From a virus (lineage: Duplodnaviria; Heunggongvirae; Uroviricota; Caudoviricetes): a stretch of 25,763 nt of DNA. Below the pieces are notes generated by a model. That model saw only the letters and a program-made list of their open reading frames with translations, ran no database searches and was not told the DNA's origin. Below are positions 1,540 through 6,612 of the stretch, piece after piece. Location: positions 1 through 25,763 of the IMG/VR virus record IMGVR_UViG_2778261381_000004. One strand, written 5' to 3'. How positions within the stretch are numbered: the stretch's first letter is position 1; each line of letters opens with the position of its first letter. The position numbers were made by a program, and so were the translations under genes.

Positions 1540-2289
1540 TTAATTAGATAGGGGATCAATAAACCGCCGTGCTTCTTCCAGTTCTTCTGGAAAGTGGGCG
1601 GAAATAAGGCGCTCTGGAACGATTTCCATTAGCCAGATAGCGGAGAAAATTGCGCGTATGCGCTTACTGCGAGGGATGGTGCGCAAACGCTCCAGAATCC
1701 ACTCAAAATAGCTTTCCTGAATCGGGTTGAACTGCATGTCTCCCATATGCTTAAAGCTAACCAGAGAGTCATCCAGACGGGTTGTTGCGCGTCTGGCTAA
1801 TTTCTCTTCAAATATCTCAATCAGTTCTGGCTGCCACAAATGCTGTGGGCGAGGCAGCTTGTCCCACAGACGTCGTGCAGCTGCGGAAAGAACAGTGGAG
1901 ATAAAGTAGTCGTATGAGCAGCAATAGCGATCCGCAAACTGGCGTGCTTTCCATAGCGACGTTTTATTAGCAGTCGACAACTCCTGATAAGGCAAGCGTT
2001 TTAACCCGGTGGTGAACGGAGCTGTTTCAAAGTGTTCACGACCGTGCGTCAGCATGATATTTGAGTACTGACGTTTGTATGCCTCCGTAAACAGACAGGT
2101 GGCCATGAGAGGATGCATATCGCGGTAATCAAACCACTTCGTCTCAAACAGTTCAGCCTCGTCTTTGCAGCGCGACAAACCAATGTTTTCAGCAACCCAC
2201 TTGTCCATAACAGCGGTATTCCACTCTGTCATGAAGTCGTACTGGTCGTTGTCGATGGTATCGAAAAAGATTTGGCTCATGTGGCTCAC
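1540..2289 (-). CDS. Hypothetical protein
   Basis: 249 aa ORF with an AGGTGA Shine-Dalgarno about 6 nt before the ATG at 2289. No family motif recognised. Its position next to the helicase suggests a replication-associated role, but that is inference only. Confidence 0.5.
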   Translation of the reverse strand: MSHMSQIFFDTIDNDQYDFMTEWNTAVMDKWVAENIGLSRCKDEAELFETKWFDYRDMHPLMATCLFTEAYKRQYSNIMLTHGREHFETAPFTTGLKRLPYQELSTANKTSLWKARQFADRYCCSYDYFISTVLSAAARRLWDKLPRPQHLWQPELIEIFEEKLARRATTRLDDSLVSFKHMGDMQFNPIQESYFEWILERLRTIPRSKRIRAIFSAIWLMEIVPERLISAHFPEELEEARRFIDPLSN

Positions 2290-2290
2290 C

Positions 2291-2313
2291 TGGTAGGTAG
2301 TTACTTACTTATC
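2291..2313 (-). promoter_or_regulatory. Recurrent intergenic motif, site A (minus-strand reading GATAAGTAAGTAACTACCTACCA)
   Basis: Seen in sequence. Shares GATAAGTAAGTA with site D and the TAAGTA core with sites B, C and E. Lies directly upstream of the 1540..2289 start and its RBS. Confidence 0.35.
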
Positions 2314-2394
2314 ACAATGAGCGGATGATAGCGACTGGTGGCAGTTTTTGGAAGTGGAAACGGAAGGGACTTGTTCTGGTGGGTGTCTTTAAAA

Positions 2395-2453
2395 GACCTG
2401 CTTCTGTATATACAAATAATAAGTAACTTATTAAATACATACGGAAGCAGGTC
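2395..2453. repeat. Long imperfect palindrome downstream of the KAP NTPase gene
   Basis: Seen in sequence: GACCTGCTTC (2395-2404) pairs with GAAGCAGGTC (2444-2453); the 39-nt AT-rich spacer contains GTATATAC and AATAAGTAACTTATT sub-palindromes. Confidence 0.45.
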
Positions 2454-2461
2454 ATAATCTA

Positions 2462-4168
2462 TTAATGATTGAGTATTTTATTAACACGCAGCTTATTAAG
2501 TGTTGATTTTGAAGCAACTTCCTCCAAAGCTTCTATTGCTTTATCAGTGATGCTCTTCTGTTCGTCTGTCGGGTGTTGCATACCCTTGAACTTGAGCATA
2601 GTCTCTTCTACTAAATTCAAAGCATCCTGATCACAGGATAATATCCAGTTTACGTAATCATCTTTAGAAAAACTGTTAAGAATATTCACATCACTATGGT
2701 TAAATCTTCCACCAGCTATTTTTTTTATAATTTTATCTAAGTTATAGTCATCTGGATTTCTATCTTTCAATTTTTTTTCAATTCTGAAACCTAATTCTTC
2801 ATTTCCGAAGATCTCTACTCGCAAAGAATTAAATGTAGCATACGCATTGTCTTTATTAACAAAAGCATCTGCATATGCCTCTATAATATTATTACAATCT
2901 CTATCCAATTTGATTAGGACATTTATTAAACCTACGAACTGTCCAATTGGTATACGCAACAGACTATCGTTAATTACGCGCTCAATTTGAAAAATAAACT
3001 CTGATTCATTATCTTTAAAAGAGTTTCTAAAAACATCCCAAATTTTATAAACCTCACATAAAACCCTATTATCTCTATATTGTTCATTTTTTTCTTTTAT
3101 TATATTTAGAATATTGCTTTCAGAAGACACATAACCGTTCTTAAGGTAAAAATCTATATCATCATCGAAAGCACTTTCTGCTCGTTCATAAATAATATCA
3201 AGGCTATTAACAAATGAATATACAGAGTTAACTTCTTCCTTTTCATCTTTATCATCTAACATATAGTCGAATGCATGTATATTTTTGATTGACTCCTTAA
3301 ATGAAGCATAATCAACGCTAGGAACACCAAAATAGTAAACCACTGAAAATAAGACCAATCTATTAATAAAACTTTCTCTAACCTTATCCTCTGCTAACTT
3401 TAGCACATCTCTAAATATAACTAGAGATGATTTTATTTTATTTAATATTCTAATGTTTTTGATGTTTAAATCATTTGCTAGGTTTTTTAACAAAAGAAAA
3501 TCAGGGTCAGTCTCATAAAAAACTTTTCTTAAGTTTTTCTCAGGCGTGGGATCGTATTTTATTTCCACATCAATTATTTTTTCTCTATACTCTAAAAACT
3601 GTTGTTGTGCAGTTTCTTCATGTAAGTTATCTTCATTTAATATTAGAACAACCTTGCAATTTTTTCTTCTTGCCAACTCATCAATTACCCCCATAATCTC
3701 TTTAATTTCTAGCGCACTACCTTTTCGTTCAATATCATCAATGCAAACCAAATAATTATTAACAAATTTATACTCAAGAGATGACAGCAGATTATCAGTT
3801 TTGAACCCAAAAAAATCGTTCTTTCCAAAATGTATTAAAAATTTTGACAAGGAGTTGTATTTCAACCATCCCCAAAACCCATTTCTATAACGAATCATAG
3901 TTCGATCCGTTTCAGATAAAATCAGTTCTTTATATTTCTTTTCATTAATTGGTGTGGCACAATGATAAAGAGCTTTTTTAATGTCTCCAATAGAATTTAT
4001 TCCAAACAAAGAAACATATGAATATGCATTAAAATCTAATTTTTTAGAATGTTTAGTATAAAAGCTATTCCAATAATGCGTTTTACCTACTCCCCAATTT
4101 CCTTTTATGACAGCAACCCGATGATCTGAGTCCAAAAAATTTTTTAAAAATACTTCTATCGATTCCAT
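2462..4168 (-). CDS. KAP-family P-loop NTPase, candidate accessory (moron) or defence gene
   Basis: 568 aa ORF. Walker A GNWGVGKT near the N-terminus and Walker B LVCIDDIER match the KAP NTPase signatures (G-x-W-G-x-G-K-S/T and hhhhDD-x-R). The gene is visibly far more AT-rich than its neighbours. No transmembrane segment is obvious. Confidence 0.6.
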   Translation of the reverse strand: MESIEVFLKNFLDSDHRVAVIKGNWGVGKTHYWNSFYTKHSKKLDFNAYSYVSLFGINSIGDIKKALYHCATPINEKKYKELILSETDRTMIRYRNGFWGWLKYNSLSKFLIHFGKNDFFGFKTDNLLSSLEYKFVNNYLVCIDDIERKGSALEIKEIMGVIDELARRKNCKVVLILNEDNLHEETAQQQFLEYREKIIDVEIKYDPTPEKNLRKVFYETDPDFLLLKNLANDLNIKNIRILNKIKSSLVIFRDVLKLAEDKVRESFINRLVLFSVVYYFGVPSVDYASFKESIKNIHAFDYMLDDKDEKEEVNSVYSFVNSLDIIYERAESAFDDDIDFYLKNGYVSSESNILNIIKEKNEQYRDNRVLCEVYKIWDVFRNSFKDNESEFIFQIERVINDSLLRIPIGQFVGLINVLIKLDRDCNNIIEAYADAFVNKDNAYATFNSLRVEIFGNEELGFRIEKKLKDRNPDDYNLDKIIKKIAGGRFNHSDVNILNSFSKDDYVNWILSCDQDALNLVEETMLKFKGMQHPTDEQKSITDKAIEALEEVASKSTLNKLRVNKILNH

Positions 4169-4190
4169 TGGTGTCTATCCTTCAACTCAT

Positions 4191-4217
4191 ATATTGGGCG
4201 TAACAAACGCCCAATAT
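4191..4217 (-). promoter_or_regulatory. Stem-loop between the ParG-like gene and the KAP NTPase gene
   Basis: Seen in sequence: perfect 10-bp inverted repeat ATATTGGGCG (4191-4200) / CGCCCAATAT (4208-4217) with a 7-nt loop. No U-tract follows on the coding strand, so it is not a canonical terminator. Confidence 0.4.
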
Positions 4218-4219
4218 AA

Positions 4220-4579
4220 TCACCCTTTCTTCATCAACTCGCGTTTAATTTCATCGGTACGCATCGTGACATCGGCAGCTGTGATCGCCTCGTTAAGTTT
4301 CACGATGTCCTCGATTTCCTGCGGTGTCTTCTCCGCAAGATGGAAAATAGCAGCACGAATCACGTCAGAACGAGTGAACTTCTCGAAGCGAGGGATGAAC
4401 TTCATCATCTCCAGCAGTTCGAAGTATTCGTCCTCCAGTGACATTGTGCGGCTTTTAATTTTCTCTTTGCCACGAGTCGGGCGTCCCTGTGGTCTGACTG
4501 GTTGGCGCAAAGGAGTTGTGTTCTTAGCCGGTGCATCAGGCTCTTTGCGCTTTGCTAGGTCACCCATTTTCATGGACAT
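4220..4579 (-). CDS. Small partition protein, ParG-like centromere-binding protein (possible ribbon-helix-helix)
   Basis: 119 aa ORF whose start overlaps the parA stop. Basic, Pro-rich N-terminal tail followed by a short structured C-terminal region. Function assigned mainly from its position directly after a small ParA, as in type Ib partition systems. Confidence 0.5.
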   Translation of the reverse strand: MSMKMGDLAKRKEPDAPAKNTTPLRQPVRPQGRPTRGKEKIKSRTMSLEDEYFELLEMMKFIPRFEKFTRSDVIRAAIFHLAEKTPQEIEDIVKLNEAITAADVTMRTDEIKRELMKKG

Positions 4580-5247
4580 TATTCTTCTTCCTCCAGACTC
4601 AACAGATAATCTACAAATTCTTCAAACTCGGCTTCCGCCTTTTTGTCGCGCTCGCTACCGGTCATTTCAAAGATAGAACGACCAGACTCTTCCGCATCAT
4701 CATAGACGTTGCGGTTATATAGATTGACTGGCGCAGACTCGATGCCAAACGTCTCAACAATCTCTTTAGCCGCCAGAATGCGAGACACTTGTGATGGCAA
4801 AGCCGGGCACTGGTTCATGACCGCGCGGACCTTCACTTTATCGTTTACATTACGAACATTGTCGATAATAGGATCGATGTCACGCAGAGATTTCAAATCA
4901 CGACGCTTAGGACGAAGCGGGATAATGATAACGTCGGCCATCAGCATCGCTTGTCGCTGAATTTCGGAGTCAAAGCCACCAGCATCTACCACTACAAACT
5001 CAGCTCTACCCTGAAGCGATTTTAGGTGCTTAATGATGTCATCCTGAACGTATGCAAAAGGAATCAGCTCAAGGTCTTCGTTCTGTCGACGGTCTTCACA
5101 CCAGCTTGTTGTCGTGCGCTGAATATCTATATCAGTGATATAAACCTTCTTCTTCTTTTTGACTTTCAGGCAAACGGCAATTTGCTGGGCAACGGTGGAT
5201 TTGCCAGGCCCGCCCTTTGTGCCGCCAACCACAAAGATCTTGGTCAT
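4579..5247 (-). CDS. parA: ParA-family partition ATPase, small type Ib (ParF-like)
   Basis: 222 aa ORF. Deviant Walker A GGTKGGPGKST (KGGxxK[ST]) close to the N-terminus. Size and lack of an N-terminal HTH fit type Ib ParA. Confidence 0.8.
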   Translation of the reverse strand: MTKIFVVGGTKGGPGKSTVAQQIAVCLKVKKKKKVYITDIDIQRTTTSWCEDRRQNEDLELIPFAYVQDDIIKHLKSLQGRAEFVVVDAGGFDSEIQRQAMLMADVIIIPLRPKRRDLKSLRDIDPIIDNVRNVNDKVKVRAVMNQCPALPSQVSRILAAKEIVETFGIESAPVNLYNRNVYDDAEESGRSIFEMTGSERDKKAEAEFEEFVDYLLSLEEEE

Positions 5248-5299
5248 TGGAGAGTTCCCTTTGCGTCTATTATTATCGTCTGAAACAACTTGTTTTCTT

Positions 5300-5490
5300 A
5301 TATGTGATATAGCCTAAATGCCTACGGCTACGGTGTAAAGGTTAAATGGTAGGTTGTGGTTAACAATTGGCAATCATAGCTTGTATTTGTCTGTTGAAAA
5401 AAGTAACAATGACCTCTATATTACAAGTACGGTGATATGCCGTACACAATTTGATAATGCACACGTAATGGGCTATAGCCTTTTAAAGTA
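5300..5490. promoter_or_regulatory. Divergent control region between parA and the toxin-antitoxin operon (candidate centromere/operator repeats and promoter)
   Basis: Seen in sequence: tandem CTACGGCTACGG (5322-5333); TACGGTG at 5329-5335 and again at 5428-5434; inverted repeat GTACGG (5427-5432) / CCGTAC (5440-5445); perfect palindrome GGCTATAGCC (5471-5480) overlapping a sigma70-like -35 TTGATA (5451-5456), 17-bp spacer, -10 TATAGC (5474-5479). Confidence 0.35.
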
Positions 5491-5565
5491 ATTTTTGAGT
5501 CGAAAACTCAGTTTGAACAGAGGAGATTGATGGCCTTCCTACATCACGGCCATCAGGAGGAATAC

Positions 5566-5835
5566 ATGTCAGCACTAAAAAAGCAGCGCATCGATTTGAG
5601 ATTAACCGATGACGATAAAAGCATCATCGAGGAAGCTGCCGCAATGTCTAACCAGAGCATTACTCAGTTTATGGTTAGCAGTGCATCTGAACGTGCCGTG
5701 AAAGTTATAGAGCAACACCGTAGACTAGTTCTGAATGAAGAATCCTGGAATCTGGTTATGGACGCTATAAGCAATCCTCCGGCACCGAACGACAAGCTGA
5801 AACGAGCTGCTGATCGTCTGAAAAGCATGGAGTAG
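5566..5835 (+). CDS. DUF1778 (TacA/AtaR-like) antitoxin
   Basis: 89 aa from the ATG at 5566, which has a GGAGG 5 nt upstream; the longer ORF from 5527 lacks a well-placed RBS. Sequence RIDLRLTDDDKSIIEEAAA...FMV...RLVLNEESWNLVMDAISNPPAPN resembles antitoxins that pair with GNAT toxins. Confidence 0.8.
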   Translation: MSALKKQRIDLRLTDDDKSIIEEAAAMSNQSITQFMVSSASERAVKVIEQHRRLVLNEESWNLVMDAISNPPAPNDKLKRAADRLKSME

Positions 5836-5842
5836 TTTACTC

Positions 5843-6364
5843 GTGAGCAATACAACGATAGAGATTTTCTCTGGAGAGAAAGATTATGATCTAAACGGTT
5901 TTGATTGCGGCGAAGAGTCACTAAACGCCTTTTTAGCCAACCACTTAAAAAGGCAGCATGAGGGAAAAATTCTTCGTGCTTATGTGCTTTGCACTCAAGA
6001 AGAAAGGCCAAAAGTGTTAGGATATTACACTTTGTCAGGTAGTTGTTTTGAAAAGGAGTCCTTACCTTCAAGAAGCAAACAAAAGAAGGTTCCTTATCGG
6101 AATGTTCCAAGTGTTACTTTGGGTAGGCTGGCTTTGGACAAGTCCCTTCAAGGTCAAGGATTTGGCTCAATGCTTGTAACACATGCAATGCGCGTTGTGT
6201 ACAATGCATCTCTTGCTGTAGGCATTCATGGACTTTTCGTTGAGGCGTTAAATGACAAAGCCAAGGCGTTTTATAAAAGTTTAGGCTTTATCCAGCTGGT
6301 TGGTAACAACGAGCGTTCTTTGTTCTATCCTACAAAATCTATCGAAAAATTGTTCGAAGAATAA
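5843..6364 (+). CDS. GNAT-family acetyltransferase toxin (TacT/AtaT-like)
   Basis: 173 aa with a GTG start 8 nt after the antitoxin stop. FDCGEESLNAFL and TLGRLALDKSLQGQGFGSMLV match the conserved motifs of tRNA-acetylating GNAT toxins. Confidence 0.8.
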   Translation: MSNTTIEIFSGEKDYDLNGFDCGEESLNAFLANHLKRQHEGKILRAYVLCTQEERPKVLGYYTLSGSCFEKESLPSRSKQKKVPYRNVPSVTLGRLALDKSLQGQGFGSMLVTHAMRVVYNASLAVGIHGLFVEALNDKAKAFYKSLGFIQLVGNNERSLFYPTKSIEKLFEE

Positions 6365-6367
6365 TGT

Positions 6368-6389
6368 GTTCCCCTCATTTGAGGGGAAC
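6368..6389. terminator. GC-rich hairpin between the convergent toxin-antitoxin operon and lysis cassette
   Basis: Seen in sequence: GTTCCCCTCA (6368-6377) / TGAGGGGAAC (6380-6389), near-perfect. It sits just after the toxin stop and just after the o-spanin stop. No long U-tract on either strand. Confidence 0.45.
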
Positions 6390-6396
6390 TTCGACA

Positions 6397-6612
6397 TCAC
6401 CAACCACAAACCCTCTCTCCCATCGTATTGTGAAAAAGGATTTGGCGTTCGGTTTCTTCAGTCATTACATCATTATTGCTGATATAGATAGGCTCAGCCC
6501 CATCGCAGAACAACACGCTGGCTGTTTGTGGTTTAATGACGCACCCACTTATCATACAACTCACGATGAACGGCAGAAGCATCTTTCTGACGTATTTTAC
6601 TGCTCGTCTCAT
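6397..6612 (-). CDS. Candidate o-spanin (outer-membrane lipoprotein, Rz1-like)
   Basis: 71 aa. N-terminus MRRAVKYVRKMLLPFIVSCMISGC has a basic n-region, a hydrophobic core and an ISGC lipobox. The gene starts inside the 3' end of the upstream i-spanin-like ORF in a different frame. Confidence 0.4.
   Translation of the reverse strand: MRRAVKYVRKMLLPFIVSCMISGCVIKPQTASVLFCDGAEPIYISNNDVMTEETERQILFHNTMGERVCGW

Follow-up and report, generated by a model that had tools for sequence, protein, structure and literature searches.

An exchangeable cargo slot between parG and a conserved palindrome at the end of the partition operon of SSU5-type phage-plasmids

Why should a gene for a KAP-family NTPase be bracketed by two inverted repeats? 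The gene lies in a 25,763-nucleotide (nt) stretch of viral DNA (Caudoviricetes; IMG/VR record IMGVR_UViG_2778261381_000004, positions 1 to 25,763), here called the window, which by sequence comparison is an SSU5/pLF82(Cyrano)-type phage-plasmid. A sequence-only reading of the window had noted the two repeats together with a shift in base composition, and had proposed that they could mark the boundaries of an inserted cassette, for example as recombination sites or transcriptional insulators. Comparison with relatives reveals that the KAP gene occupies a defence-gene hotspot at the end of the partition operon. A single hypervariable cargo slot, with largely anti-phage defence genes as its occupants, extends from the parG stop codon to a conserved palindrome. 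The repeats themselves look like ordinary transcript-level elements, an operon terminator and a hairpin between genes, and not like a new recombination system.

Both repeats lie where the sequence-only reading placed them, and neither is random. The upstream one is a perfect hairpin at 4190..4218, on the - strand like all genes of the slot region in the list of open reading frames; it begins one nucleotide past the parG stop codon, and 21 nt lie between its end and the start of the KAP gene. Its arms, TATATTGGGCGT and ACGCCCAATATA, enclose a 5-nt loop and are 12 bp long, 2 bp more per arm than first read. The corresponding RNA has a folding energy of -18 to -19 kcal/mol (z -4 to -7), and in dinucleotide-shuffled versions of the window such hairpins arise at a rate of 0.03 per window. 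The downstream repeat is a 59-bp interrupted palindrome at 2395..2453, ending in GACCTGCTTC and GAAGCAGGTC, with 18-nt arms that are 89% complementary and an AT-rich centre that is itself palindromic. On the - strand it folds at -28.3 kcal/mol (z -7.4) with ten GC-rich outer pairs. Given the fold z-scores and the dinucleotide shuffles, a chance origin was rejected for both repeats. The compositional shift is real as well: the G+C content (GC) is 0.26-0.32 over approximately 2460-4190 and 0.46-0.50 in the flanks, and the drop falls exactly between the two repeats.

The borders of the region without homology to relatives tell the two repeats apart. On the right, homology to all relatives picks up at 4219-4224, the parG stop codon, with non-homology from 4219/4220; the 12-bp hairpin is therefore on the variable side. 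On the left, homology stops 0 to 8 nt beyond the palindrome (2453-2461), which places the palindrome on the conserved side. Approximately 20 nt of the spacer found in empty sites (TCTGGCAGCTTCAATTCAGA) are retained beside the palindrome by many cargo classes and are absent in the KAP class and four others; hence, the insertion points differ. The edges of non-homology coincide with the repeats, yet the repeats are unrelated in sequence and different in kind. Of the proposed cassette boundaries, the part that holds is that KAP is an exchangeable cargo in a slot whose edges lie within 0-8 nt of the repeats; the repeats, however, are not a matched pair.

The interval from the parG stop codon to the palindrome was compared in 80 loci that have both landmarks, namely the window, five GenBank phages and 74 IMG/VR contigs. 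In the window, the slot content (2454..4219; 1766 bp, GC 0.30) consists of the hairpin, a 21-nt leader, the KAP open reading frame and 8 nt. The slot is empty in five of the loci (L006, L026, L030, L072 and L080): the interval is 27-29 bp and reads TGA caacttccGGTCTGGCAGCTTCAATCAGA, after which come the palindrome and a gene for a protein of 249 amino acids (aa), referred to below as the 249-aa gene. The expectation that parG would be followed directly by this gene in relatives that lack the NTPase was thus borne out, with just the 27-29 bp and the palindrome between them. Two more empty sites were found in distant relatives (L095 and L098; 59% identity). The other 75 loci are filled with at least 14 unrelated cargo classes of 0.8-2.0 kb, and additional cargo types are present in Klebsiella, Citrobacter, Morganella and other distant relatives. 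In PLSDB, the flanks are matched by 713 plasmids, of which 23 carry the KAP gene. Empty sites and alternative cargos between constant flanks mean that the KAP gene is exchangeable.

What the slot holds points to defence. PADLOC models match the cargos PD-T4-3, a GIY-YIG protein (1.5e-23), PD-T7-5 (4.5e-139), PDC-S31/DUF2971 (1e-40) and PDC-S49, the KAP protein (E 2e-21). The locus accordingly has both marks of a defence hotspot: conserved flanking genes with many cargos at one position, and cargos that include known defence systems, as judged from model matches. A phage-plasmid survey lists PD-T4-3 and PD-T7-5 in E. coli/Shigella SSU5-group elements with the locus undescribed (10.1101/2025.09.12.675607), and a literature search found no paper on this slot or on PDC-S49. 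Cargos without a Pfam or PADLOC family match (L014, L005, L051, L081, L035 and L068) comprise a 357-aa protein, a 225-aa protein that resembles a lipoprotein, and gene pairs of 214 + 145 aa and 253-255 + 140 aa with predicted membrane segments. By their location, these genes are candidate defence or exclusion genes.

The KAP gene (2462..4168, - strand) encodes a 568-aa P-loop NTPase, a candidate single-gene anti-phage defence protein. Its family membership is supported by a Pfam PF07693 match of 26 bits, above the cut-off of 20 bits, and the Walker A motif GNWGVGKT lies at residues 23-30. The closest relatives (77%, 42% and 40% aa identity) are all on ~110 kb plasmid contigs, and those inspected (L001, L058, L086 and L087) are likewise slot occupants that have hairpins of their own after parG. 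The 21-nt leader (4169..4189) that separates hairpin and start codon in the window has an AAGGA ribosome-binding site and is too short for a promoter; a consensus scan of the - strand found no promoter-like site in 4169-4579. Since only these 21 nt precede the start codon and the scan is blank, KAP presumably depends on read-through of transcripts that start at the par promoter. At the other end, 8 nt separate the KAP stop codon from the palindrome. The two E. coli KAP alleles diverge unevenly, with 25-30 differences per 100 nt in the C-terminal part (2460-3000) vs 1-8 per 100 nt at 3700-4000, and the C-terminal domain may be fast evolving or recombined.

How cargos are exchanged can be read from recent swaps. 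A locus with the PD-T4-3 cargo (L008) is identical to the window over 114-2369, with a crossover at 2370, and one with the DUF2971 cargo (L012) is identical up to 2407, inside the palindrome, with a crossover at 2408. On the other side, the crossovers lie inside parG, and blocks of linked single-nucleotide polymorphisms in parG and parA occur in different combinations from one cargo class to the next. Among 5426 complete E. coli genomes, KAP, PD-T4-3 and DUF2971 occur in 28, 107 and 21, respectively, always on plasmids of the SSU5 type; none of the three was found on a chromosome or outside this plasmid family. No recombinase, integrase or transposase gene is present within the annotated neighbourhoods of the slot. 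Variable crossovers, reassorted flank polymorphisms and cargos confined to such plasmids argue for homologous recombination and against site-specific movement. The pattern is that of cargo swapped by homologous recombination in conserved flanks at variable crossovers, with long residence in the slot. The proposal of paired recombination sites is thus not supported, on several counts: the two repeats share no sequence, the palindrome is part of the backbone, insertion points differ, crossovers vary and no recombinase is nearby.

What, then, is the role of the palindrome? It is constant with all cargos and in empty sites, where it is the sole hairpin after parG; persistence of this kind was judged to be what the sequence-only reading itself had named as refuting its proposal. 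On the - strand, the sequence directly 3′ of it reads UCUUUUAAAG in the window, a short tract with 4 U, and the U-rich tail UUUUAAAG directly after the palindrome occupies 2387..2394. The earlier remark that neither repeat has a canonical U-tract therefore stands for the 12-bp hairpin but not for the palindrome. A TCTTTT tail is present 3′ of the stem in ~80 of 86 loci, on the - strand only. The pairing is biased toward the same strand. Among 42 unique palindrome variants from the 86 loci, the non-Watson-Crick cells at stem positions 1-14 include 50 G·U pairs valid only on the - strand vs 3 valid only on the + strand, and in 36 of the 42 the RNA of the - strand has the stabler fold, although these variants share phylogeny, so that cell counts overstate the independent events. 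A formal pairing count over 23 distinct arm pairs, four distant relatives among them, gave 96.2% paired cells on the - strand vs 89.9% on the + strand, exceeding all shuffle controls, and five stem pairs are altered on both sides. In the Raoultella locus L095, where the slot is empty and the neighbour protein is 59% identical, the arms read CCTGCTCCCCAT and ATGGGAAGCAGG and the inner stem has gone from CUUCUGUAU/AUACAGAAG to CUCCCCAU/AUGGGAAG, which amounts to three to four compensatory double changes. In L098, pairing is kept via a U·G pair and the tail reads UAUUUUAUC. At 47-49% identity, two relatives (L094 and L096) have canonical terminators, GGGAGCA..TGCTCC followed by UUUCUUU, at the position of the palindrome.

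Strand-biased G·U pairing, the - strand tail, compensatory changes, canonical terminators in distant relatives and the lone hairpin in empty sites together suggest that the palindrome is most probably an intrinsic terminator ending the par-cargo transcript. Of the roles first proposed, that of a transcriptional insulator is the best reading for the palindrome, and it comes close to the comparative evidence. Among the usual features of intrinsic terminators, the stable GC-rich stem-loop and the U-rich tract are present, while the short loop and compact stem are missing. No other copies of the arms of either repeat were found beyond chance in the window, nor elsewhere in the 12-kb loci; thus, they do not belong to a dispersed repeat family. 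An Rfam search of 2200-5700 returned sub-threshold chance matches only. The centre of the palindrome holds a motif, ATAAGTAAC (2419-2438), that recurs as TAAGTAAGTAAC in the 5′ untranslated region of the 249-aa gene (2298-2312); distant relatives keep the latter copy and not the palindrome centre.

Hairpins after parG are a feature of the slot as a whole. Of 16 cargo types, 14 have a strong hairpin (z -2.4 to -9.4) in the 48 nt that follow the parG stop, different in each type and found with cargo genes in the same or the opposite orientation to parG; in the two exceptions, the start codon abuts the parG stop. Some of these hairpins have U-tracts (classes 9, 11, 13 and L058/L087) and others, including that of the window, have none. 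The second E. coli KAP allele has the window hairpin unchanged, although the alleles are 83% identical overall and 5 of 17 adjacent nucleotides differ. Post-parG hairpins do not move together with the cargo: between L056 and SSU5, the DUF2971 gene has 98% identity, and homology sets in at its start codon. The 12-bp hairpin could act as a leaky terminator or could stabilise the 3′ end of the parFG mRNA; in the model outlined below, this role is the weakest part. The ten nucleotides after the parG stop (TTATATTGGG; 4209-4218 in the window) are identical in a Morganella element (L094, 3331-3340) that has a different cargo and backbone proteins ~47% identical, and they form the 5′ part of a hairpin in both.

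These data can be combined into a model of the slot, a backbone palindrome that terminates the par-cargo transcript, a hairpin after parG, a cargo reached by read-through and exchange by homologous recombination, to which we assign a probability of roughly 0.6. In this model, the par promoter would transcribe parA-parG and read through the post-parG hairpin into the promoterless KAP cargo, and the 12-bp hairpin would keep parFG expression independent of whichever cargo follows. The palindrome hairpin on the - strand, with UCUUUU, would end the par(-cargo) transcript and insulate the operon of the 249-aa, helicase and primase genes, which would use its own conserved -10-like element. Cargos would move among related phage-plasmids via recombination in the flanks and not through a reaction at the hairpins. 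A number of observations weigh against the model. The 12-bp hairpin lacks a U-tract, and the stem of the palindrome is atypical for a terminator, being ~27 bp long and interrupted, with internal loops and only 4 U after it. A consensus promoter and terminator scan, which requires a 3-8 nt loop, calls neither repeat; for the palindrome, this loop requirement is the sole reason. The window allele has a C·A mismatch at stem position 9 on the - strand, L092 is without the T tail, and L100 has an unrelated palindrome between divergent genes. Finally, the arm sequence is near-invariant as far as relatives with 64-65% identical neighbours (L092 and L097), more than structure alone needs.

The last three points bear on a real rival, in which the palindrome has a protein-binding role, alone or added to its role in RNA. 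Here it would mainly be a DNA site for a dimeric plasmid or phage protein, as the operator of the 249-aa/helicase operon or in connection with partition or replication, and the hairpin would be secondary. The arms (CCTGCTTCTGTATA/TATACAGAAGCAGG) hardly vary in Escherichia, Salmonella, Klebsiella, Citrobacter, Kluyvera and Buttiauxella, where centre and flanks diverge; L100 has a perfect 18-bp palindrome without a T tract in the same place; and the centre motif has its second copy in the 5′ untranslated region next door. A DNA site does not, however, fit well with the strand-biased G·U pattern, the compensatory changes in L095 and a T tail conserved on one side only, which favour an RNA hairpin, or with the plain terminators in more distant relatives. 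The arm motif is moreover found nowhere else in the window or in the 12-kb loci. A comparison of the palindrome with the region upstream of parA, a possible centromere, gave no repeats in common. The 249-aa neighbour, as a possible binder of the palindrome, has no Pfam match and no PDB sequence match; its AlphaFold model is confidently all-helical (predicted local distance difference test, pLDDT, 87.5; predicted template modelling score, pTM, 0.86), and a PDB fold search with it gave no match (best E 0.77) and no DNA-binding fold. We consider this rival unlikely, albeit one to be taken seriously. Less probable still is that the palindrome sets the decay of the par-cargo mRNA as an RNase III processing site, without termination, in a transcript that continues into the replication genes. 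Lambda sib and the T7 intergenic sites are processed by RNase III and provide the model for this reading; the near-continuous stem of ~27 bp would be a substrate of the right size, its structure is selected on the - strand, and the U tail is short, with 4 U. Termination, though, better fits the conserved T tail and the canonical terminators of distant relatives, and the next operon seems to have a promoter of its own, to judge from the conserved -10-like element downstream.

The remaining alternatives return to the hairpins as sites of insertion. In a cassette system, integron-like (attC/attI) or based on hairpin-targeted insertion, each cargo would have been captured via its own hairpin. Non-homology does start 0-8 nt from both repeats, nearly all cargos have their own hairpin at the parG-proximal edge, the cargo open reading frames are compact and promoterless, and the constant palindrome has, at 59 bp, the classic size of attC. 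By inspection, though, RYYYAAC/GTTRRRY core sites are absent from both repeats, whose sequences have nothing in common, and the palindrome is constant and retained in empty sites, hence not cassette-specific. Nor is an integrase or transposase annotated in the neighbourhoods; left edges are ~20 nt apart between cargo classes, recent swaps cross over at variable points inside homologous flanks, the hairpin did not move with the DUF2971 gene, and the cargos are in no other genomic context in E. coli. This possibility is already largely refuted, and we regard it as very improbable. To the same slim degree, we entertain the idea that the palindrome and the post-parG hairpins are active in cargo capture, through template switching stimulated by hairpins or cruciforms or through a phage-plasmid enzyme that recognises hairpins; the slot would then be an integron-like acquisition site that needs no integrase, with the near-invariant arms and TTATATTGGG as recognition determinants.

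The slot is a newly delimited case of something already familiar, namely a defence hotspot or moron-like slot. The hotspots of P2 and P4, reportedly described by Rousset et al. in 2022, likewise have a fixed position between conserved genes, many unrelated cargos including known defence systems (here PD-T4-3 and PD-T7-5), atypical cargo composition and exchange through conserved flanks. In contrast, the present slot lies in a phage-plasmid, at the 3′ end of the operon for partition, where it separates parG from the terminator; the empty state of the slot is seen, most cargos are without their own promoter, and a hairpin marks the operon-proximal edge. Phage morons, a concept said to go back to Juhala et al. 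and Hendrix et al. in 2000, are similar in being extra genes between genes that are adjacent in relatives, with deviant base composition (GC 0.30 vs 0.48) and stem-loops at their borders. Presence or absence with deviant composition is indeed found here, but the own promoter and own terminator of a classic moron are not, as the space ahead of KAP is too short for a promoter, and the terminator is shared, belongs to the backbone and is already there when the slot is empty.

The two repeats can be compared with known elements in the same way. With intrinsic terminators, the palindrome shares its place at an operon end, a GC-rich stem with a U run after it on the transcribed strand, G·U pairs with compensatory evolution, and replacement by canonical terminators in distant relatives; it differs in its unusually long stem (59 nt, interrupted, AT-rich in the upper half), short U run and unusually conserved sequence. 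The 12-bp hairpin resembles the repetitive extragenic palindromic (REP)-type hairpin between malE and malF, which reportedly has a stabilising role (Newbury et al. in 1987 are said to have described it): both are stable hairpins without a U-tract, right after the upstream stop codon in an operon, with the next gene a few nucleotides on. Unlike that hairpin, ours is outside the REP sequence family and has no repeated copies that we found. Integron cassettes and attC, the "59-base element", have in common with the slot compact promoterless open reading frames downstream of a resident promoter and imperfect palindromes of similar size. The differences are the lack of core sites and of IntI and attI alongside, a palindrome that is constant backbone instead of moving with a specific cassette, and exchange by homologous recombination.

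Thus far, we have focused on the repeats; the slot is of somewhat more interest as a source of candidate defence genes. It is defined to the nucleotide in a phage-plasmid family common in E. coli, Shigella, Salmonella and Klebsiella, and it holds two defence systems from functional selection and two candidate systems, so that slot genes without a family match become candidate anti-phage genes by location. Its architecture, with a resident promoter, a hairpin after parG, promoterless cargo and a shared terminator, suggests how a mobile element might host interchangeable and possibly toxic cargo without upsetting the replication operon downstream or the partition operon, which is sensitive to dosage.

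The genes around the slot are conserved in order: parA-parG-slot-249-dnaB is preserved in relatives down to 47% aa identity, and the annotated neighbours are parA, parG, the 249-aa gene, helicase, primase, a toxin-antitoxin pair and lysis genes. All of the following are on the - strand. The first gene of the operon (4579..5247) encodes a 222-aa ParA/ParF-type partition ATPase, which matches Pfam MipZ, AAA_31, CbiA and ParA and is annotated as ParA in relatives. The parG-like gene for a small partition protein (4220..4579; 119 aa) matches phrog_5111 (E 1.5e-79), a family of unknown function, and a Pfam search with its product gave no match. The conserved 249-aa gene (1540..2289; phrog_2500, E 3e-113) is the first after the slot and is followed by a DnaB-like helicase gene (156-1496). 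Homologues of the 249-aa protein are confined to SSU5-type plasmid contigs of ~100-110 kb, and a scan of the genome collection with this protein returned six loci only. Downstream of the palindrome, AGTCGCTATCAT (2325..2336), which includes a -10-like TATCAT, is conserved in 86 of 88 loci and was used as an anchor; the -10-like element reads TATGAT in Klebsiella and Citrobacter, its general form being AGTCGCTAT(C/G)AT. From its sequence and position, it is a plausible part of the promoter of the 249-aa/helicase operon.

Further features lie toward the ends of this region. Positions 1-113 of the window are the end of an IS911/IS3-family insertion sequence (IS), 100% identical to the copy in Salmonella phage SEN22, and homology to related phage-plasmids begins at 114; the IS element thus sits between the helicase stop codon (156) and the next gene in relatives, the primase gene. 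A perfect 10-bp hairpin (AAGCGTGGAGgtgttCTCCACGCTT) at 126-150, 6 nt past the helicase stop codon, has an arrangement like that at 4190-4218. A second variable region (5300-6400) lies beyond the par operon as seen from the slot and in the window holds a TacA-like antitoxin gene (5527-5835) and a GNAT toxin gene (5843-6364). PhiR41_1 and SSU5 have two unrelated genes in place of this toxin-antitoxin pair, and plasmid pTIC (MF554642.1) holds aac(6')-Ib-cr in the same region.

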